Virus record (IMG/VR): IMGVR_UViG_638341084_000008
Strand: one strand, 5' to 3'
Length of the DNA: 30,598 nucleotides
Source: a virus
Lineage: Duplodnaviria; Heunggongvirae; Uroviricota; Caudoviricetes
In this document: in pieces, positions 1 to 8,006 of the stretch
Layout of the letters: every line of letters begins with the position of its first letter
How positions within the stretch are numbered: position 1 is the first letter of the stretch
Made by a program: the position numbers and the translations under genes
Notes under the pieces: model-generated
Databases searched by the model: none
Told to the model about the DNA's origin: nothing
What the model saw: only the letters and a program-made list of their open reading frames with translations

Positions 1-117
1 AAACACCATGACGAACTGCATGCGGATACCGTGGCATTTGAAGAGAAGTATGGCTCCCAGCTGGAGCTGATATTTCGTTTTATCGATCGTGCGCTGGCAA
101 TTGGCGTGCTGGCCTGA
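1..117 (+). CDS. 3' end of an upstream ORF of unknown function (partial; open from the window edge to TGA at 115-117)
   Basis: Frame 1 is open from position 1 to the stop at 115-117, ending ...[15 protein letters not shown]. It lies directly upstream of Q, where lambdoid phages carry nin-region genes. No family was recognised. Confidence 0.3.
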
Positions 118-134
118 TTTTGTGGAGAACGTTG

Positions 135-500
135 ATGCGTGATATTCAAATGGTTCTTGAACGTTGGGGGGCATGGGTGGCAAATAATCACGAGGATGTC
201 ACCTGGTCGTCTATTGCTGCAGGATTTAAAGGACTAATCCCTTCAAAAGTAAAATCCCGCCCGCAATGTTGTGACGATGATGCGATGATCATTTGTGGGT
301 GCATGGCTCGCCTGAAAAAGAACAACAGCGATTTGCACGATTTATTAGTGGATTATTATGTAGGTGGTATGACGTTTATGGCGCTTGCCCGTAAACATGG
401 GCGTTCTGATTGCTGGGTTGGGCGTTTATTGCAAAAGGCTGAAGGTGTAGTTGATGGCATGTTAATGATGTTAGAAATTGAGCTAGAGATGGATCGTTAG
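135..500 (+). CDS. Q: Late-gene antitermination protein Q (QuuD/phage-82-type small Q)
   Basis: The ORF translation from the ATG at 135 ([60 protein letters not shown]...) matches my memory of DLP12 QuuD-type Q proteins. It sits immediately upstream of the lysis cassette. The track start at 120 is a TTG, so the ATG at 135 is preferred. Confidence 0.8.
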
Positions 501-511
501 AAGACCTCTTA

Positions 512-585
512 TTGAGGGGGTAATTGAATCAGTTTAATGTGTGGGGAGTCGATTTATTCTCCCCATTTTATTTAATTAATTTACT
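512..585 (+). promoter_or_regulatory. Candidate late promoter / Q-utilisation region with hairpin, immediately downstream of Q
   Basis: TTGAGG (512-517), a 17-nt spacer and TAATGT (535-540) form a sigma-70-like -35/-10 pair. A hairpin GGGGAG..CTCCCC (543-564) is followed by a T-rich tract. The position after Q is where lambdoid PR'/qut normally lies. This is read by eye only. Confidence 0.3.
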
Positions 586-1031
586 TAAGGTTTTAATTCA
601 TCAAGACGTTGTTGGATAGTGTTTTTGCTTGCGTTGTCTGTTATAGCCATTTGTTGTACTTGCCCCATTGCCATTTGAGTTTCCATCCACATATCGGCCC
701 ACACTTTTGTATCGTTATTAACTTGAGCGATAGTAAATCTGACTTTTGATACCGGGGTTGTTGAATAGGCATTGCCGATTAACATTTGTCCAAAAACAGC
801 AGACCCGCCTTCCAGTTCTTTACCACATATAACACTGCTGTTATCAGCGTTGTAAATTATCAACCCTCTACTATTGCAGTAATTCACAAGGGCATCTTTG
901 ACTTTATCTTTTGTCGTATTTTGATAAACCCCCTCAGGTTTTCCTGATTGAGTTTTTTTTATCAATGGTACGGAAGAAGTACAACCTGAAATGATAGTTG
1001 CGCTAAGTAATAGTACAGTCATTTTATTCAT
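585..1031 (-). CDS. Predicted lipoprotein of unknown function, antisense to late transcription (moron candidate)
   Basis: 148-aa ORF with an N-terminal signal peptide and lipobox (MNKMTVLLLSATIISGC, Cys as the +1 residue). It sits on the opposite strand between Q and the late genes, the same position as the antisense porin morons in DLP12 and PA-2. Confidence 0.55.
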   Translation of the reverse strand: MNKMTVLLLSATIISGCTSSVPLIKKTQSGKPEGVYQNTTKDKVKDALVNYCNSRGLIIYNADNSSVICGKELEGGSAVFGQMLIGNAYSTTPVSKVRFTIAQVNNDTKVWADMWMETQMAMGQVQQMAITDNASKNTIQQRLDELKP

Positions 1032-1160
1032 GTTTCTTATCCATTGTTAAGGGCATACCTACACAATTATTTTTATTGGAGATGAATAATCAACCGTTTA
1101 CAATCGTAAAAAATCAAATATGCTGTTAAGAGTGGTTACTTCGCCACACAACTTAAACCC

Positions 1161-1179
1161 GCCGCTGAGCGGTTTTTTT
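1161..1179 (+). terminator. Weak hairpin plus T7 run, candidate intrinsic terminator (possible tR'-like element)
   Basis: CCGC-TGA-GCGG short stem followed by TTTTTTT (1173-1179). The stem is only 4 bp, so this is weak. Confidence 0.3.
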
Positions 1180-1299
1180 GTACCTGTAAACTTGGTGCAG
1201 TACAGTAAACACGCTGGTGGTCGTGAATACTGACCTTTTATCTTGCTGGCTTTTTAGACAAGAGTTATTGGTATGTCATGTTAACCAGAAGGGAAAAAG

Positions 1300-1505
1300 A
1301 CATGCTAAAACAGCAAGATATGACAGAAACCGCCGCCGCAGTCCTTCATTTCTTACCTGCTGACAAGTGGGTAACGCCACGCATGATGACGAGAACTACC
1401 GGAGTAAGCGAAGCCCGGTGCCAGTTAATACTGACTCAGTTAGTTCTGGCGGGTCTGGCGAAGGATAACGGCGGATACGGGAATAAATTCAGACGCTGCC
1501 AGTAA
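1300..1505 (+). CDS. Small putative winged-helix DNA-binding protein, possibly PapI/FaeA-like
   Basis: ATG at 1300 is preceded by AAGGGAAA; the track's upstream start at 1278 is less well placed. The segment VLHFLPADKWVTPRMMTRTTGVSEARCQLILTQLVLAGLA resembles the PapI/FaeA regulator pattern from memory. The family assignment is tentative. Confidence 0.45.
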
Positions 1506-1655
1506 TGGCGGTTTCCTGCTGTGAAAATGGGCGGCTGGTGGGTGTTGGTAGCACCTGCCAGCCATTCGCTCATGCTTACTGGTCACAAGCGAACCACGGC
1601 CCACTGCTTTAGCGCAAAAGCAGAGTGAGCCTACCAGAGTTACGCTTACTGATCC

Positions 1656-2708
1656 ATGAAAAATACTGTAAAAATAAACAGTGTTGATTTAATCAACGCT
1701 GATTGCCTGCATTTTATTCAGTCCCTGCCTGATGATTCCATTGACCTGATTGTTACCGATCCGCCGTACTTCAAGGTGAAACCCAACGGTTGGGACAATC
1801 AGTGGAAAGGGGACGAAGATTACCTTAAGTGGCTGGACCACTGTCTGGCCCAGTTCTGGCGGGTGTTAAAACCTGCCGGAAGCCTTTACCTGTTCTGTGG
1901 GCATCGCCTGGCATCTGATATTGAGATCATGATGCGTGAACGTTTCAACGTGCTTAACCATATCATCTGGGCGAAGCCGTCCGGACGTTGGAATGGGTGT
2001 AATAAAGAAAGTCTGCGCGCATATTTTCCTGCCACAGAGCGCGTTCTGTTTGCTGAACATTACCAGGGGCCATATCGCGGCAAAAGTGACGGCTATGCAG
2101 CAAAAGAAAGGGAACTCAAACAGCACATAATGGCACCGCTGATATCGTATTTCAGGGATGCTCGTGCCGAACTGGGTATAACGGCAAAACAAATTGCCGA
2201 AGCCACAGGTAAGAAAAATATGGTTTCCCACTGGTTTGGTGCCAGTCAGTGGCAGTTGCCGAATGAGGCTGACTATCGGAAGTTACAGGCACTGTTTTCC
2301 CGTATAGCGGCAGAGAAGTTTCAGGAACAACAACTGGAACAACCACACCACCAGCTGGTGGCATCTTATGATTCACTGAATCGCAAATATTCTGAATTGC
2401 TGGATGAGTTTAAATCTCTCCGGCGCTATTTCTCCGTATCAGTCTCCGTGCCTTATACCGATGTCTGGANGCATAAACCCGTTCAGTTCTACCCGGGNAA
2501 ACATCCGTGTGAGAAACCGGCGGATATGCTCNGGCAAATAATCAATGCCAGTAGTCGNCCNGGTGATCTGGTTGCTGATTTTTTTATGGGATCCGGTTCC
2601 ACAATAAAAGCAGCAATGGCGCTGGGGCGTCGGGCCTTAGGTGTTGAGCTTGAGTCAGAGCGGTTTAACCAGACAGTGAAAGAGATAAACGAGCTGGTGG
2701 GGAAATAA
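1656..2708 (+). CDS. DNA methyltransferase, beta-class amino-methyltransferase (N6-adenine or N4-cytosine)
   Basis: Catalytic motif IV DPPY (IVTDPPYF) lies near the N-terminus and the AdoMet-binding motif I (FFMGSGST) near the C-terminus, which is the beta-class order. The gene contains five N bases (2470, 2498, 2513, 2568, 2571) that give X residues in the translation. Confidence 0.85.
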
Positions 2709-2714
2709 TCTGGT

Positions 2715-2736
2715 GGCCACGTCAGGTGGCCTTTTT
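2715..2736 (+). terminator. Intrinsic terminator between the methyltransferase gene and the holin
   Basis: GGCCAC-GTCAG-GTGGCC hairpin followed by TTTTT. It would be read through under Q antitermination. Confidence 0.55.
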
Positions 2737-2775
2737 ATTTCCATTACACAGCACCCGCATCTGCGAGGTGGGGTT

Positions 2776-2991
2776 ATGAAATCCATGGATAAGTTAACAA
2801 CGGGTGTCGCCTATGGCACCTCAGCAGGTAGTGCCGGGTACTGGTTTTTACAGTTGCTCGATAAAGTCACGCCCTCACAGTGGGCGGCAATAGGTGTGCT
2901 GGGTAGTCTGGTATTTGGCTTGCTGACGTATCTGACAAACCTTTATTTCAAGATTAAAGAAGACAAGCGTAAGGCTGCACGGGGAGAGTAA
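2776..2991 (+). CDS. S: Holin, phage-21 S-type (pinholin) with dual-start motif
   Basis: [71 protein letters not shown] closely matches my memory of S21. The two starts (MKSMDK.. and MDK..) are the classic holin/antiholin arrangement. GAGGTGGGG precedes the ATG at 2776; the track start at 2713 is a GTG inside the terminator. Confidence 0.85.
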
Positions 2992-2995
2992 TTCA

Positions 2996-3340
2996 ATGAC
3001 TCAAAACTATGAACTGATTGTGAAAGGGATCCGCAATTTTGAGAATAAAGTTACGGTAACTGTAGCGTTACGGGACAAAAAACGCTTTGACGGTGAAATT
3101 TTTGACCTGGACATCTCGCTGGACCGTGTTGAAGGTGCCGCGCTGGAGTTTTATGAGGCAGCAGCCAGAAGGAGCATCAGACAGGTCTTCCTGGATGTTG
3201 CTGCCGGGTTATGTGAAGGGGATGAGCAGTCGCCGGAAAAGCGCCCCGTAATTTTAGAGGCGCAGGATGTGTTGATAACCTACAGAGGAAAACTACCGGG
3301 AATAATTACGGGTTCTCTGAAGAGTCCGCCGAAATGGTAA
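2996..3340 (+). CDS. Hypothetical protein inserted between holin and endolysin
   Basis: 114-aa ORF starting 4 nt after the holin stop, with GGGGAGAG upstream. No family was recognised. The lysis cassette is normally S-R-Rz without intervening genes. Confidence 0.5.
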   Translation: MTQNYELIVKGIRNFENKVTVTVALRDKKRFDGEIFDLDISLDRVEGAALEFYEAAARRSIRQVFLDVAAGLCEGDEQSPEKRPVILEAQDVLITYRGKLPGIITGSLKSPPKW

Positions 3341-3578
3341 TTTTACCAGCATATTTTTCATCCAGTAATACAGCAAGCCGCCTGAAAGAGTCTTGTTGTT
3401 CCTGAGACCATTTGGGATTGCATGATTCAAACTGGATTGATGCCAGCGTTGATTGCATCTGTTCCCTTGGAATTGAGAATGCCAGATATGAGAAGGCGAC
3501 GGTAAGGGTATTCACGTCTTCCCGAAGCCTGGAAATGCTGTCGAGCAACTCCTGTAGAGAAATGGTGTTATTGTCCAT
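3306..3578 (-). CDS. Hypothetical protein, convergent with and overlapping the 3' end of the 2996..3340 gene
   Basis: 90-aa ORF on the minus strand with GAGGA about 7 nt upstream of its ATG. It fills the 344-bp gap between the upstream unknown gene and the endolysin. No family was recognised. Confidence 0.4.
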   Translation of the reverse strand: MDNNTISLQELLDSISRLREDVNTLTVAFSYLAFSIPREQMQSTLASIQFESCNPKWSQEQQDSFRRLAVLLDEKYAGKITISADSSENP

Positions 3579-3683
3579 AAATAATCCTCATGATTGTATT
3601 GACCTGTTAGCAGCCTGAGGCAACAGGCTGGAACTGATAAACATATCCAGGGCTCAGAAACCGATAAATCCTGATAAATATCC

Positions 3684-4217
3684 ATGAACGCAAAAATCAG
3701 ATACGGCCTGTCGGCTGCCGTTCTGGCGCTGATTGCCGCTGGTGCGCCTGCGCCTGACATTCTCGACCAGTTTCTGGATGAAAAGGAAGGTAACCACACC
3801 ACGGCATACCGTGATGGCGCGGGTATCTGGACCATCTGCCGCGGTGCCATCCTGGTGGATGGCAAACCTGTCGTTCCGGGCATGAAGTTGTCGAAGGAAA
3901 AATGCGACCGGGTTAACGCCATTGAGCGTGATAAGGCGCTGGCATGGGTGGAGAAAAACATCAAAGTGCCATTGAGCGAACCACAGAAAGCGGGTATAGC
4001 GTCATTTTGTCCCTATAACATTGGCCCCGGTAAGTGTTTCCCGTCGACGTTTTATAAGCGGCTGAATGCCGGTGATCGTAAGAGTGCATGCGAGGCGATT
4101 CGCTGGTGGATAAAAGATGGTGGGCGCGATTGCCGCATACGTTCAAATAACTGCTATGGACAGGTTATTCGTCGTGACCAGGAAAGCGCATTAGCCTGCT
4201 GGGGGATAGATCAGTGA
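3684..4217 (+). CDS. R: Endolysin (lysozyme), probably a SAR-type endolysin
   Basis: The N-terminus has a weakly hydrophobic Gly/Ala-rich segment ([17 protein letters not shown]) followed by a lysozyme-like region ([20 protein letters not shown]). Both the position after the holin and the pairing with a pinholin fit the phage-21 lysis arrangement. Confidence 0.85.
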
Positions 4218-4681
4218 GCAGAGTCGCCGCGATTATTTATGCTCTGGTTATCTGCATCATCGTCTGCCTGTCGTGGGCGGTCAATCATTACCGTGATAAC
4301 GCCATCGCCTACAAAGAACAGCGTGATAAAAAAGTCAGTGAGCTGAAGCAGGCGACCGCCACCATTACTGACATGCAGCAACGCCAGCGTGCTGCTGATG
4401 TACTCGATGCTAAATACACGAAGGAGTTGGCTGATGCGAAAGCTGAAAATGATGCTCTTCGGCGCAAGCTTGATAATGGTGGTCGGGTGCTCGTCAAAGG
4501 AAAATGCTCTGTGCCATCCTCAGCCGAAACCTCCAGCGCCTCCGGCATGGGCAATGATGCCACCGTCGAACTCTCTCCAGTTGCTGGACGAAACGTTCTC
4601 GGTATCCGGGACGGAATCATCAGAGACCAGACAGCACTGAGAACGCTTCAGGAATATATCAGGACGCAATGCCTTCGATGA
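4214..4681 (+). CDS. Rz: Spanin inner-membrane subunit Rz (i-spanin)
   Basis: N-terminal transmembrane segment followed by a coiled-coil-like charged region. The GTG start overlaps the endolysin stop (GTGA), and the gene has an embedded +1 frame lipoprotein ORF. Confidence 0.8.
4434..4640 (+). CDS. Rz1: Spanin outer-membrane lipoprotein subunit Rz1 (o-spanin), embedded in Rz
   Basis: The embedded ORF encodes [21 protein letters not shown]..., with lipobox VVGC and a proline-rich mature part. AAGGAG lies at 4421-4426 before the ATG at 4434. Confidence 0.7.
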
Positions 4682-5199
4682 TAGCGATAATTTTACTCAT
4701 CATCCTTCACATCTGGCTCTGTAGACAGGGTGGTGATCACTTCTGGAGTGAATCCAGATTAAACATCTCATTGCTGATGCTTGAAGTTGAGCATCTGGCG
4801 CGCGGTAAGGGGCTGCGTTGAAATAAGAGCCAGTCATTACAAATACCAGGATTTAGCCTCGTATTCGCGGGGCTTTTTATTGCCATTACAAAAGCCACTC
4901 CCTACAGAGTGGCTTTGATAATGGCTTATACCCTACACGGGATAACTTAACTGATATCCCTTTTAACGGATAAAGGTATTCAAGCCTGACACATCATGCG
5001 CTGTATCGTCGCCGTATTCCCGTATTAACAGAGACCGTAGCCCGACGGGGAACTCCTTCTGCGAGAGTGTGCGGGGGTGGAAGAAACAGGATACTCACAC
5101 AGATTCTTGTGGGCACGATGCTATTCCTTTCTGGATTATCCCGATGCCATTCATGCAAGGCGCTGTATCAGACGTTCGTCATGGCTGTCAGGCTGACGG

Positions 5200-5410
5200 G
5201 TCCTCCCGGTGGGGTGGCCTGCCACGGGGCGGGAGCGTCGCGGAAAAAGGCTAGTTTTTGCATTTTTATTGGCCACCATCATCTTTGCATCTTATTGATT
5301 ATTAATGGTTATTTGTTTTTTGCATGTCGAATTGAGTGTTTTTTGTTCGACATCGAACGCGTTTTCTTAAAGTTGTTCGCACGATGCATGTTTAAAGCTC
5401 TCCGGAGGAA
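5200..5410. other. Candidate cos region (cosN-like GC-rich core plus small-terminase binding repeats)
   Basis: It lies between Rz and the small terminase gene, where cos sits in lambdoid phages. ACGGGGCGGGAGCGTCGCGG (about 5224-5243) resembles the lambda cohesive-end region. Three TTTGCAT repeats (about 5257, 5284, 5318) and a palindrome ATGTCGAA..TTCGACAT (5333-5363) follow. Confidence 0.4.
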
Positions 5411-5412
5411 AT

Positions 5413-5904
5413 ATGGATCATGAGTTGAAAAACCTGGTGCTGAATATTAATCAACTGGCGGCTTTATCTGGTCTGCACCGCCAGACTGTCGTGGCAAGAC
5501 TGAAAAACATTCGTCCCGCTGGTGGACATGACAAACTCAAGCTATACCGGTTGACCGATATTCTGACTGAATTTATGGGGTTACCACCGCCGGTTGCTGA
5601 GGGCGAAATGGATCCACATGAACGCAAAGCCTGGTATCAGTCTGAACGTGAGCGTCTTAAGTTCGAACAGGAAACGGCACAACTCATTCCGGCCAGTGAT
5701 GTCAGACGGGAGTTTGCCATCTGGGCAAAAGCGGTCGTGCAGGTGCTGGAGACATTACCGGATATTCTGGAACGTGACTGCGGCCTGCAGCCTGCCGCTG
5801 TGAGCCGTGTTCAGTCCATTATTGATGATCTGCGCGATCAGATAGCCCTGCGGGTGACCGAAGCAGGTGCGGATGATGAGGAGGAATTACAGCAGGAGGA
5901 GTAA
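5413..5904 (+). CDS. Terminase small subunit (Nu1-like)
   Basis: 163-aa protein with an N-terminal HTH-like segment (LAALSGLHRQTVVARL) and an acidic C-terminus. Its stop overlaps the large-subunit start (TAATG). Confidence 0.8.
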   Translation: MDHELKNLVLNINQLAALSGLHRQTVVARLKNIRPAGGHDKLKLYRLTDILTEFMGLPPPVAEGEMDPHERKAWYQSERERLKFEQETAQLIPASDVRREFAIWAKAVVQVLETLPDILERDCGLQPAAVSRVQSIIDDLRDQIALRVTEAGADDEEELQQEE

Positions 5905-8006
5905 TGCTGAATCAGGAAACCGCAACGGCAGCACGAACCGATTCAGGTTATATCCTTCGCGCACCGAGACGAATGCGGGTTGCTGATGCCGTTGCTCAGT
6001 ATATGCGGGTGCCCATGGGGGCAGGGAACTCAGTCCCGTGGGATCCGCTGGTGGCACCGTATGTTATTGAGCCGATGAACTGCCTGGCCTCGCGTGAATA
6101 CGACGCAGTGATATTTGTTGGCCCGGCACGAACCGGCAAGACTATCGGCCTGATTGACGGCTGGGTGATTTACAACGTGATTTGCGACCCTGCGGATATG
6201 CTGATCATTCAGATGACGGAGGAAAAAGCCCGCGAACACTCCAAAAAACGACTCGCCAGAACGTTTCGCGTCAGCCCGGAAGTGGTCAGTCGCCTGAGTC
6301 CGAACAAAAATGACAACAACGTTTATGACAGAACATTCCTTGCTGGCAACTACCTGAAAATCGGCTGGCCGTCAGTCAATATCATGTCCTCATCAGATTA
6401 TAAATGCGTCGCGCTGACGGATTATGACCGTTTTCCGGAAGATATTGATGGCGAGGGGGATGCTTTCTCTCTTGCCTCAAAACGTACCACAACATTTATG
6501 TCCAGTGGTATGACGCTGGTGGAGAGTTCCCCCGGCAGGGATGTGAAGGATGTGAAATGGCGACGGACTTCACCGCATGAGGCTCCACCAACCACTGGGA
6601 TACTGTCGCTCTATAACCGTGGCGATCGCCGTCGCTGGTACTGGCCCTGTCCACACTGTGGTGAGTATTTTCAGCCCTGCGGCGATGTGGTTGCTGGTTT
6701 CCGTGATATTGCCGATCCCGTGCTGGCAAGTGAGGCGGCTTATATTCAGTGTCCTTCCTGTTCAGGACGGATTATGCCTGAACAAAAACGTGAGCTGAAC
6801 GGACGTGGGGTCTGGCTGCGGGATGGTGAATCCATCAATGCGGATGGCAGTCGTTATGGTGATCCCCGACGCTCACGTATTGCGTCATTCTGGATGGAGG
6901 GTCCGGCAGCTGCTTACCAGACACTCTCGCAACTCGTTTACAAACTGCTTACTGCAGAACAGGAATACGAGACAACCGGAAGTGAAGAAACACTCAAGAC
7001 GGTTATCAATACCGACTGGGGATTACCTTATCTTCCCCGCGCCAGCATGGAGCAACGAAAAAGTGAACTGCTTGAGCAGCGGGCAGAGCCAGTTCCTTCC
7101 CGCAGTGTGCCGGATGGCGTTAATTTCCTTGTGGCGACAGTGGATGTGCAGGCGGGACGTCATCGCCGTTTTGTGGTTCAGGTAACGGGCTATGGCAGCC
7201 GTGGCGAACGCTGGATTATTGATCGTTACAACATCACGCAGTCATTGCGCGGTGACAGCGACGGGGAGAGCCAGCGAATTGATCCGGCCAGTTATCCGGA
7301 AGACTGGGATGTCCTGCTGACGGATGTTTTTCATAAAAGCTGGCCGCTGGCCTCCGATCCTTCTCAACAAATGCGACTGATGGCAATGGCGGTGGACTCC
7401 GGCGGTGAAGACGGGGTCACTGATAATGCCTATAAATTCTGGCGTCGTTGCCGTCGTGATGGCCTTGGTAAACGTATTTACCTGTTTAAGGGCGACAGCA
7501 TCCGGCGCGCAAAACTGATCACCCGTACATTCCCTGATAACACCGGACGAACGGGCCGACGGGCGCAGGCCGCAGGTGATGTACCGCTCTGGCTTCTTCA
7601 GACGGATGCCCTGAAAGACCGGGTGAATAACGCGTTATGGCGTGACTCGCCAGGTCCCGGCTATGTGCATTTCCCTGACTGGCTGGGGAGCTGGTTTTAC
7701 GACGAACTGACGTATGAAGAGCGGAGCAGTGACGGGAAATGGAGTAAGCCGGGTCGCGGTGCCAACGAAGCTTTTGACCTGATGGTGTATGCCGAGGCTC
7801 TGGTCATTCTGCATGGATACGAAAAGATCCGCTGGCCGGATGCACCGGAGTGGGCGAGCCGGGAAACCTGGCTGGAGTGTGTCCCGGACAGTACCGAACC
7901 GTCACCCTCACCGGAACCGGTATCCACGCCTGTTAAAAAACAAAAACGGAAGAAAACAGTAACTGACGATGTTAACCCCTGGCTGACTTCCGGAGGATGG
8001 TTATGA
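5904..8006 (+). CDS. Terminase large subunit (gpA-like)
   Basis: 700-aa protein with a Walker A-like motif (VGPARTGKT) in the N-terminal ATPase region, placed as in lambda between the small terminase and W/portal. Confidence 0.9.
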   Translation: MLNQETATAARTDSGYILRAPRRMRVADAVAQYMRVPMGAGNSVPWDPLVAPYVIEPMNCLASREYDAVIFVGPARTGKTIGLIDGWVIYNVICDPADMLIIQMTEEKAREHSKKRLARTFRVSPEVVSRLSPNKNDNNVYDRTFLAGNYLKIGWPSVNIMSSSDYKCVALTDYDRFPEDIDGEGDAFSLASKRTTTFMSSGMTLVESSPGRDVKDVKWRRTSPHEAPPTTGILSLYNRGDRRRWYWPCPHCGEYFQPCGDVVAGFRDIADPVLASEAAYIQCPSCSGRIMPEQKRELNGRGVWLRDGESINADGSRYGDPRRSRIASFWMEGPAAAYQTLSQLVYKLLTAEQEYETTGSEETLKTVINTDWGLPYLPRASMEQRKSELLEQRAEPVPSRSVPDGVNFLVATVDVQAGRHRRFVVQVTGYGSRGERWIIDRYNITQSLRGDSDGESQRIDPASYPEDWDVLLTDVFHKSWPLASDPSQQMRLMAMAVDSGGEDGVTDNAYKFWRRCRRDGLGKRIYLFKGDSIRRAKLITRTFPDNTGRTGRRAQAAGDVPLWLLQTDALKDRVNNALWRDSPGPGYVHFPDWLGSWFYDELTYEERSSDGKWSKPGRGANEAFDLMVYAEALVILHGYEKIRWPDAPEWASRETWLECVPDSTEPSPSPEPVSTPVKKQKRKKTVTDDVNPWLTSGGWL

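Follow-up and report, generated by a model that had tools for sequence, protein, structure and literature searches.

The adenine methyltransferase M.EcoGII is a commercial reagent that is widely used to footprint chromatin and RNA. The enzyme methylates adenine whatever its context, i.e., in double-stranded DNA, single-stranded DNA, RNA and hybrids, this methylation blocks every restriction enzyme tested, the constitutive expression of the enzyme produces sick cells, and in the lysogen it is silent (PMC5778455). In the lysogen EC958 the transcript of M.EcoMV, a homologue of M.EcoGI, went undetected by reverse transcription PCR (PMC4659465), and the reconstructed ancestors of the M.EcoGII family were still non-specific (PMC11551740). 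How phages safely express so toxic and indiscriminate an enzyme has not been examined in the literature that we searched. We have analyzed a natural gene of this family in a virus sequence assigned to the Caudoviricetes, IMG/VR record IMGVR_UViG_638341084_000008 (30,598 nucleotides; this whole stretch is referred to as the window, and positions are counted from its first letter). Our best reading, which we hold with a probability of about 0.6, is that positions 1156-2745 are a hypermethylation cassette in the late operon of a lambdoid prophage, a module for anti-restriction that would depend on the late-gene antiterminator Q and in which terminators and a leader RNA would restrain the toxic enzyme. 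The natural gene has a fixed control architecture, made of multiple terminators, a start codon lacking a Shine-Dalgarno sequence behind a covarying leader and, usually, a small winged-helix gene.

The methyltransferase and its late-operon cassette

The methyltransferase open reading frame (ORF) matched the Pfam family N6_N4_Mtase (PF01555) with E=5.4e-41 and 141.4 bits, against a cut-off of 26.7. The motif DPPY is located at residues 35-38 (nucleotides 1758-1769) and FMGSGS, the FxGxG motif, at residues 310-315 (nucleotides 2583-2600), which is the order of the beta class, just as a previous sequence-only reading of this DNA had proposed for this amino-methyltransferase. The central region between the two motifs gave a weak match to the helix-turn-helix family HTH_3 (residues 167-193), a position in agreement with the four-helix helix-turn-helix target-recognition domain of M.EcoGII (PMC11551740). 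When compared with the 349-residue methyltransferase of Escherichia coli O104:H4 strain HUSEC2011, the window enzyme was identical at 281 of 348 residues (81%) over the full length and without gaps. The HUSEC2011 protein matches the M.EcoGII sequence of Supplementary Table S1 in PMC11551740, allowing for PDF extraction errors, and its gene is found in a prophage late region where Q, small ORF, leader and methyltransferase follow one another as in the window. By its sequence, then, the window enzyme is a new allele of the known and characterised M.EcoGI/GII family. M.EcoGIX was also considered as a prophage enzyme and dropped, being plasmid-borne and single-strand specific according to the literature.

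Two observations on the integrity of this gene can be added. In one viral contig (L138, IMGVR_UViG_2551306525_000004, around position 2240) the methyltransferase starts with ATGAAAATACTG in place of ATGAAAAATACTG, a deletion of one nucleotide in an A-run that causes a frameshift. In the window, five of the seven ambiguous bases present in the 30.6 kb (2470, 2498, 2532, 2558 and 2561) fall in 92 nucleotides of the methyltransferase gene, and this clustering could reflect a multi-copy gene that was collapsed or is polymorphic in the assembly.

The lambdoid late region fills the first 5 kb of the window. Within it, the cassette runs in the order tR', 67-residue winged-helix gene, terminator-like hairpin, leader of about 137 nucleotides, 350-residue methyltransferase and terminator, and is followed by the holin. 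The features are:

120-500, plus strand: late-gene antiterminator Q (Pfam PF06530 Phage_antitermQ, E=2.1e-51)
585-1031, minus strand: lipoprotein-like gene, 148 amino acids (lipobox ISGC, phrog_3152)
1161-1180, plus strand: tR'-like intrinsic terminator (hairpin 1161-1173 and T-run; terminator scan)
1302-1505, plus strand: small ORF, predicted winged helix, 67 amino acids (phrog_331, E=4.6e-26, function unknown)
1495-1511, plus strand: hairpin P0, followed by a T-rich run, weakly terminator-like (50-sequence alignment)
1519-1655, plus strand: putative structured 5' leader of the methyltransferase mRNA (conservation, covariation)
1656-2708, plus strand: beta-class N6-adenine DNA methyltransferase, M.EcoGI/GII family, 350 amino acids (PF01555, E=5.4e-41)
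2715-2741, plus strand: intrinsic terminator between methyltransferase and holin (hairpin 2715-2731; terminator scan)
2776-2991, plus strand: P21-type holin S, first gene of the lysis cassette (PF04971, E=2e-35)

Homology to phages that carry a different Q begins at position 1156, exactly at the intrinsic terminator, i.e., at the position of tR'. In the terminator scan, the tR'-like element was GCCGCTGAGCGGT followed by TTTTTTG, and the one after the methyltransferase was GGCCACGTCAGGTGGCC followed by TTTTTATTTC. The annotation of phage SfV has a rho-independent terminator at the tR'-like site and a terminator at the second one as well. The strict scan did not call P0.

The cassette is common among enterobacterial phages and genomes. 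The block 1156-2780 was 99.2-99.3% identical at the nucleotide level in phages mEp460 and Ayreon, 98.8-98.9% in cdtI and PhiR40_1, where the similarity reaches slightly further upstream, 96.3% in SfV (orf47/orf48) and 90% in the Stx2c-converting phages (n=15). We found matches to the cassette in 1,463 of 5,426 complete E. coli genomes (1,118 at a coverage of at least 80%), located in up to eight places per genome, and the enzyme is encoded on more than 596 IMG/VR contigs. A profile scan of viral contigs for distant relatives of the methyltransferase gave near-identical copies only, among the matches listed. In the Stx2c phage EH0430 (L213, 4647-7665) the order is Q, small ORF, 150-nucleotide spacer, methyltransferase, two tRNAs, stxA (RIP domain) and stxB, which bears out the proposal of the sequence-only reading that the gene pair sits in the late-operon slot of the Stx phage toxin genes. 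Since the cassette lies there directly upstream of the tRNAs and of stx2cA/B, it shares the interval between Q and holin with the toxin genes and does not replace them. Furthermore, the methyltransferase and the toxin genes are on the same strand between Q and the lysis genes and are therefore presumably part of one late transcript. The phage escape from restriction that is at stake would concern about one quarter of the sequenced E. coli, including the Stx2c phages in which the cassette presumably rides on the late transcript of the toxin genes.

The surroundings of the cassette are those of a lambdoid late region. A DUF1327 gene, a lysozyme and Rz are found downstream of the holin, and the first two of these are separated by a 90-residue ORF on the minus strand (3306-3578; phrog_2411, E=1e-58, function unknown). 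The lipoprotein-like gene comes with a promoter-like site of its own (1050-1021) and with a terminator-like hairpin (543-562). In other loci the same reverse-strand slot between Q and tR' (L005, 2136-3587; L004, 1420-2881) contains an AAA_15/AAA_21 ATPase or two hypothetical genes, so that it looks like a hot spot for morons or defence genes.

The putative leader in front of the methyltransferase

The spacer that precedes the methyltransferase turned out to be more conserved than either of the flanking genes, both in the window (1519-1655) and in three other loci (L004, 3350-3500; L009, 2508-2656; L084, 2363-2500). Between E. coli and Citrobacter, Klebsiella, Salmonella, Kosakonia, Mixta or Phytobacter its identity was 82-92%, while the methyltransferase coding sequences of the same pairs were 72-78% identical. 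It was always fused to the ATG of the methyltransferase, with or without the small ORF upstream, and was equally conserved both ways. A 22-mer of the leader was present in 120 viral contigs, and in 109 of them an ORF containing DPPY started 130-132 nucleotides downstream; the rest include one frameshifted methyltransferase and four recombinants in which an AraC-like gene is found instead. An intact methyltransferase gene is never separated from the spacer of about 137 nucleotides.

As RNA, the spacer can form the following pairings, all on the plus strand:

1533-1544/1552-1563, plus strand: leader helix P2
1565-1570/1588-1593, plus strand: leader helix P3 (UUCGCU/AGCGAA)
1605-1622, plus strand: leader helix P4
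1598-1604/1625-1631, plus strand: leader helix P5 (GGCCCAC/GUGAGCC)
1581-1586 with 1649-1655, plus strand: long-range pairing of GGUCAC with CUGAUCC, just 5' of the AUG

Covariation was evaluated with a manual structure (P0, P1, P2, P3 and P4) on an alignment of 50 sequences, using 500 shuffles and slid controls. Standard pairs were found in 80% of the cells, double-sided changes affected 19 pairs compared to 12.2+/-1.4 in the shuffles (none of the 500 was as high), and the covariation score was 0.156 versus at most 0.093 for the slid controls. The clearest case was in P3, where the column pair 87/111 was CG in 24 sequences, AU in nine, UA in eight and UG in four. In Proteus, the GGCUGGUGGGUG/CACC..CCAGCC of P2 becomes GACUGUAAAAGUG/CACCUUUACAGUC or GACAGUGAGGAUG/CAUCCCCGCUGUC. 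In hairpin P0, which has the TAA stop codon of the small ORF in its loop, all seven pairs changed on both sides; a hairpin with a T-run precedes the leader also in the loci that lack the small ORF.

Pairing is kept, with some compensatory changes, in a second set of helices as well, which cannot form together with P1 and P3. It consists of AUGGGC/GCUCAU, which extends P2, of P5, and of the long-range helix in which GGUCAC..AAGCG pairs with CGCUU..CUGAUC directly 5' of the AUG. This second set is the one found in the minimum free energy folds of single sequences (for the window, -56.9 kcal/mol with z=-3.1; for a Proteus version, -50.0 kcal/mol with z=-4.7). No Shine-Dalgarno sequence was found before the AUG of the methyltransferase. 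We read the spacer as a structured 5' leader, possibly bistable, that would restrain the translation of the toxic enzyme. The element does not seem to belong to a described RNA family, i.e., Rfam 15 had no match at E<=1 across positions 1-6000, the two minus-strand matches obtained at E<=10 for 1480-1700 were at chance level (12.4 bits with a gathering threshold of 44.2, and 9.7 with one of 113), and ARAGORN detected no tRNA or tmRNA at the spacer.

The leaders of Photorhabdus and Xenorhabdus (L060-L091) are only 79-102 nucleotides long and have the stem GGUGAA..[GGCUGG hairpin]..UUCACC alone, without P3, P4 or P5. Given these short versions, only the 5' hairpin is universal in the family.

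We also considered that the spacer could act as DNA, e.g., as a promoter or operator, or could be a short coding sequence on either strand. There is an invariant ATG at 1527 that opens a 33-codon ORF (MGGWWVL...), and two ORFs of the reverse strand overlap the spacer (1436-1573 and 1440-1604). However, indels of one nucleotide shift the frame of the former among relatives, and in Proteus the peptide begins MGDCKS or MGDSED while the base pairing stays. The abundance of G-U pairs assigns the RNA to the plus strand, since on the opposite one they would become A-C mismatches. A consensus scan found no sigma-70-like promoter site within 1506-1655, and compensatory changes are hard to explain by a function at the DNA level. 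A leader peptide or a reverse-strand ORF was discarded, as frame and peptide are not conserved and the pairing is, and we consider this whole group of explanations very unlikely.

The small winged-helix protein and its association with the methyltransferase

The small ORF extends from the ATG at 1302 to the stop at 1505 (67 amino acids). An alternative ATG at 1278 would give 75 residues, but the start at 1302 (204 nucleotides) is the one annotated in phages PhiR40_1 and mEp460 and has a Shine-Dalgarno-like AAGGGA seven nucleotides 5' of it. The sequence-only reading had described an ORF of 68 amino acids from position 1300; the ORF is real and its start was correct within two bases, the length being one residue less. 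Among 53 distinct sequences of this ORF, 59% of the single-nucleotide codon differences were synonymous, and invariant residues such as T8, L44 and A50 use from four to six codons. This pattern of substitutions indicates that the small ORF is a real coding gene under purifying selection, conserved as such in its relatives. Homologues of the protein were found in Escherichia, Salmonella, Klebsiella, Pantoea and Kosakonia and, upstream of the methyltransferase, also in Mixta, Rosenbergiella, Morganella, Proteus, Photorhabdus and Xenorhabdus. Two segments are nearly invariant, the N-terminal MLKQQDMTETA and the third helix RCQLILTQL. The rest of the protein is a mosaic, with two alleles for the region of the first two helices, two for the wing, and recombinants between them. 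The 5' arm of hairpin P0 is formed by the C-terminal codons (RRCQ or KRLQ), which covary with the 3' arm.

AlphaFold2, run on an alignment of 27 sequences, gave a model with a pLDDT of 87.3, with helices at 4-17, 26-33 and 37-49 and a beta-hairpin wing at 53-55/63-65. The protein is thus predicted to be a compact stand-alone winged helix of H1-(S1)-H2-H3-S2-W1-S3 topology, the fold that had been anticipated from the sequence. The top 50 Foldseek matches in the PDB included N-terminal domains of O-methyltransferases, IclR, TrmBL2, Zalpha domains, NsrR, SelB and the ribosomal protein eS25, and the best fits over the whole domain were to Zalpha (TM-score 0.85, root-mean-square deviation 1.0-1.5 Å). 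In BFVD, a poxvirus E3L-like Zalpha protein was at the top, and uncharacterised phage proteins were matched as well. Pfam matches below threshold among the 27 family members were to TrmB (22/27), DprA_WH (16/27) and MarR_2 (16/27), while sequence and profile searches of the PDB (phmmer, hmmsearch) returned only noise. The likeness to Zalpha (ADAR1, poxvirus E3L) and to the winged helices of the TrmB, IclR and MarR type is therefore one of fold, with sequence identities of 10-25%. Inspection by eye showed none of the residues by which Zalpha contacts Z-DNA (Asn/Tyr in helix 3, Pro-Pro-x-Trp in the wing), and, unlike the TrmB, IclR and MarR-type proteins, the small protein has neither a dimerisation nor a ligand domain. 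It has one invariant cysteine (C40) and one variable (C66), with no CxxC pairs. Neither the protein nor its 26 relatives matched the Xre-type helix-turn-helix family HTH_3 in Pfam, the matches being to winged-helix families instead.

A specific proposal had been that this protein is of the PapI/FaeA type, i.e., that it reads the methylation state of DNA and forms an epigenetic switch with the methyltransferase. Both PapI and the small protein are stand-alone winged helices of about 70 residues, hhalign aligns their helices in the same register, and the pairing with an adenine methyltransferase is real. However, of the two Pfam families that had been suggested for profile searches only N6_N4_Mtase was matched, by the methyltransferase; FaeA (PF04703) was matched neither by the window protein at E<=1 nor by any of the 27 family members at E<=10. 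The alignment of the family profile with the PapI sequence (identical to PDB 2HTJ) had a probability of 17.5% over 43 columns, and 2HTJ was not returned by phmmer or hmmsearch in the PDB nor was it among the top 50 of Foldseek, so that a relationship at the sequence or profile level is undetectable. The context is that of a phage late operon (Q, tR', holin) and not that of a fimbrial regulatory region with Lrp sites and paired GATC sites. Besides, the closest characterised enzyme methylates all adenines without sequence specificity, hence a PapI-type switch at two defined GATC sites would have no obvious substrate, and in lysogens, the setting in which a heritable switch would need to act, the cassette would be silent according to the published work on its relatives. 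The free reassortment of the two genes and the occurrence of each on its own do not favor such a model either. The idea of a PapI-based epigenetic switch can hardly be correct and should be dropped. What survives of the methylation-linked or anti-restriction module suggested by the sequence-only reading is the anti-restriction part, which fits the published work on M.EcoGII; the sensing of methylation state found no support.

The association of the two genes is widespread. Taking one genome per species, the small ORF was immediately upstream of the methyltransferase in ~59 of 77 loci with usable flanks, from Escherichia to Proteus and Xenorhabdus, and 98 of the 107 viral contigs carrying the leader had both genes. 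The spacer between them measured 146-154 nucleotides in Enterobacteriaceae, 138-142 in Proteus and Morganella and 79-102 in Photorhabdus and Xenorhabdus. About 16 genome loci and nine viral contigs had leader and methyltransferase without the small ORF. The pairing is, consequently, frequent (~77-92% of loci) and not obligatory. The reverse situation was found in four viral contigs and in strain TB4019, which have the small ORF and keep the first ~45 nucleotides of the leader, the methyltransferase being replaced by an AraC-like helix-turn-helix gene. In recombinants of this type (L132, 12370-13576 on the minus strand; L212, 2649-3694; L106, L155 and L165) the 237-residue AraC-like regulator is followed by tRNAs, and the hairpins P0 and P2 are kept, P2 being maintained with G-U pairs.

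The alleles of the two genes also reassort. A small protein 100% identical to that of the window is found upstream of M.EcoGII, the methyltransferase being only 81% identical, and a small protein with 51% identity precedes a methyltransferase that matches the one of the window at all 345 unambiguous residues. Such free reassortment argues against an allele-specific partnership between the proteins, and an allele-specific co-evolution, which would have hinted at a complex of the two, was rejected. The small protein may instead have a generic regulatory role exerted via its invariant helix or be independent of the methyltransferase.

Control of the cassette and comparison with known systems

In the anti-restriction module that we favor, the cassette would be off in the lysogen, because transcription must pass tR' and further terminators. 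Upon induction, RNA polymerase modified by Q would read through tR', P0 and the downstream terminator, and the enzyme would methylate the progeny DNA prior to packaging, so that the phage would escape restriction in the next host. Given the lack of a Shine-Dalgarno sequence and the possible pairing of the bases 5' of the AUG with the upstream GGUCAC, the leader would probably limit the toxic enzyme's translation or time it. The small winged-helix protein would be an accessory nucleic-acid-binding factor and possibly a regulator of the cassette; we infer that it is not required for the maintenance of the methyltransferase and that it is not a homologue of PapI/FaeA.

Several points weigh against this module as a whole. 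The window allele differs from M.EcoGII at 19% of its residues, including some within the target-recognition domain, and with such divergence its non-specificity is something that we infer. What speaks for a regulatory role of the leader is its conservation and covariation, several of its helices exclude one another, and in Photorhabdus and Xenorhabdus the leaders are shorter and keep just the 5' hairpin. Moreover, the small protein may have nothing to do with the methyltransferase, because the leader is conserved to the same degree without the small ORF, the alleles reassort, and the small ORF persists in the AraC recombinants.

If functionally independent, the small ORF would simply come first among the late genes after tR', e.g., as a DNA-binding factor for other phage or host targets, and would have only the cargo slot in common with the methyltransferase. 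That each gene occurs without the other and that alleles recombine freely (a 100% identical small protein with an 81% identical methyltransferase, a 51% identical one with an identical methyltransferase) is in accordance with it, and so is the stretch from tR' to the first ~11 codons, a conserved block that is found also ahead of other cargo. However, a co-occurrence of 77-92% with constant spacing, across families down to 60% methyltransferase identity, exceeds the expectation for unrelated neighbours in a region that recombines so freely, and we consider independence somewhat unlikely. The fixed distance of ~150 nucleotides from Escherichia to Proteus, in spite of the evident recombination between the two genes, would fit a Com-like or controller-like regulator that binds the leader, as RNA or DNA, and switches it between a closed fold with the start region paired and an open one; in the manner of Mu Com and mom, the toxic enzyme would be translated only with the late operon fully on. 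The nearly invariant RCQLILTQL, the predicted recognition helix, belongs to a protein with two alleles elsewhere, in keeping with a target that does not vary, and the leader is the most invariant sequence nearby, with two mutually exclusive sets of helices that each show some covariation. The fold neighbours include the RNA-binding winged helix of SelB and Zalpha domains, and in the recombinants without methyltransferase P0 and the P2 hairpin are retained along with the small ORF. Against such a regulator stand the ~10-23% of loci that have leader and methyltransferase and lack the small ORF, with leaders equally conserved, and the fact that the protein is neither a zinc finger like Com nor an Xre-type helix-turn-helix like the controller proteins. 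We regard this role as unlikely. We also asked whether binding by the small protein is what keeps the leader conserved; loci that have the small ORF did not differ from those that lack it, and the idea was rejected.

A related and tentative proposal concerns the spacer itself. Its ~137 nucleotides might be an undescribed cis-regulatory RNA switch for genes of the M.EcoGII family, alternating between an open fold and one in which the bases immediately 5' of the start codon are paired, and flipped by a trans factor encoded in the cassette. This factor could be the mini winged-helix protein, acting in a Com-like manner, or the methyltransferase. M.EcoGII does methylate RNA (PMC5778455), and if the enzyme were the factor, N6-methylation of leader adenines would give a self-limiting feedback. 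Taken as a whole, the switch seems to us rather unlikely.

Regarding the comparison with known systems, the cassette has in common with M.EcoGII and M.EcoGI (Murray et al. 2018, PMC5778455) a beta-class enzyme of 349-350 residues and the late-operon prophage position, and also a 100% identical small protein and a leader with 85% nucleotide identity; the difference lies in 19% of the methyltransferase residues. The M.EcoGII paper (PMC5778455) is silent on the upstream ORF and the leader, and the word 'upstream' is absent from its main text. The enzyme family is already characterised and the cassette is present in many annotated genomes. Two features appear undescribed in the literature searched, a mini winged-helix gene as an almost constant companion and, most of all, the leader RNA with its covariation.

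PapI/FaeA (PF04703) shares with the small protein the size and the stand-alone winged helix, and differs in its Lrp/GATC fimbrial context. The controller (C) proteins of restriction-modification systems are also encoded by small DNA-binding protein genes ahead of a potentially lethal enzyme, with a presumed function in timing, but they are Xre-type helix-turn-helix dimers, with C-boxes as their sites and restriction genes under their control, and our cassette contains no restriction gene. In phage Mu, Com is a zinc-finger (Cys4) RNA-binding protein and Mom is not an AdoMet methyltransferase, whereas the small protein here is predicted to be a winged helix without a Cys4 set. By analogy, with a small protein gene directly upstream of a toxic late DNA-modification gene and mRNA structure at the start of the latter, com-mom would be the closest functional parallel to the arrangement of genes described here.

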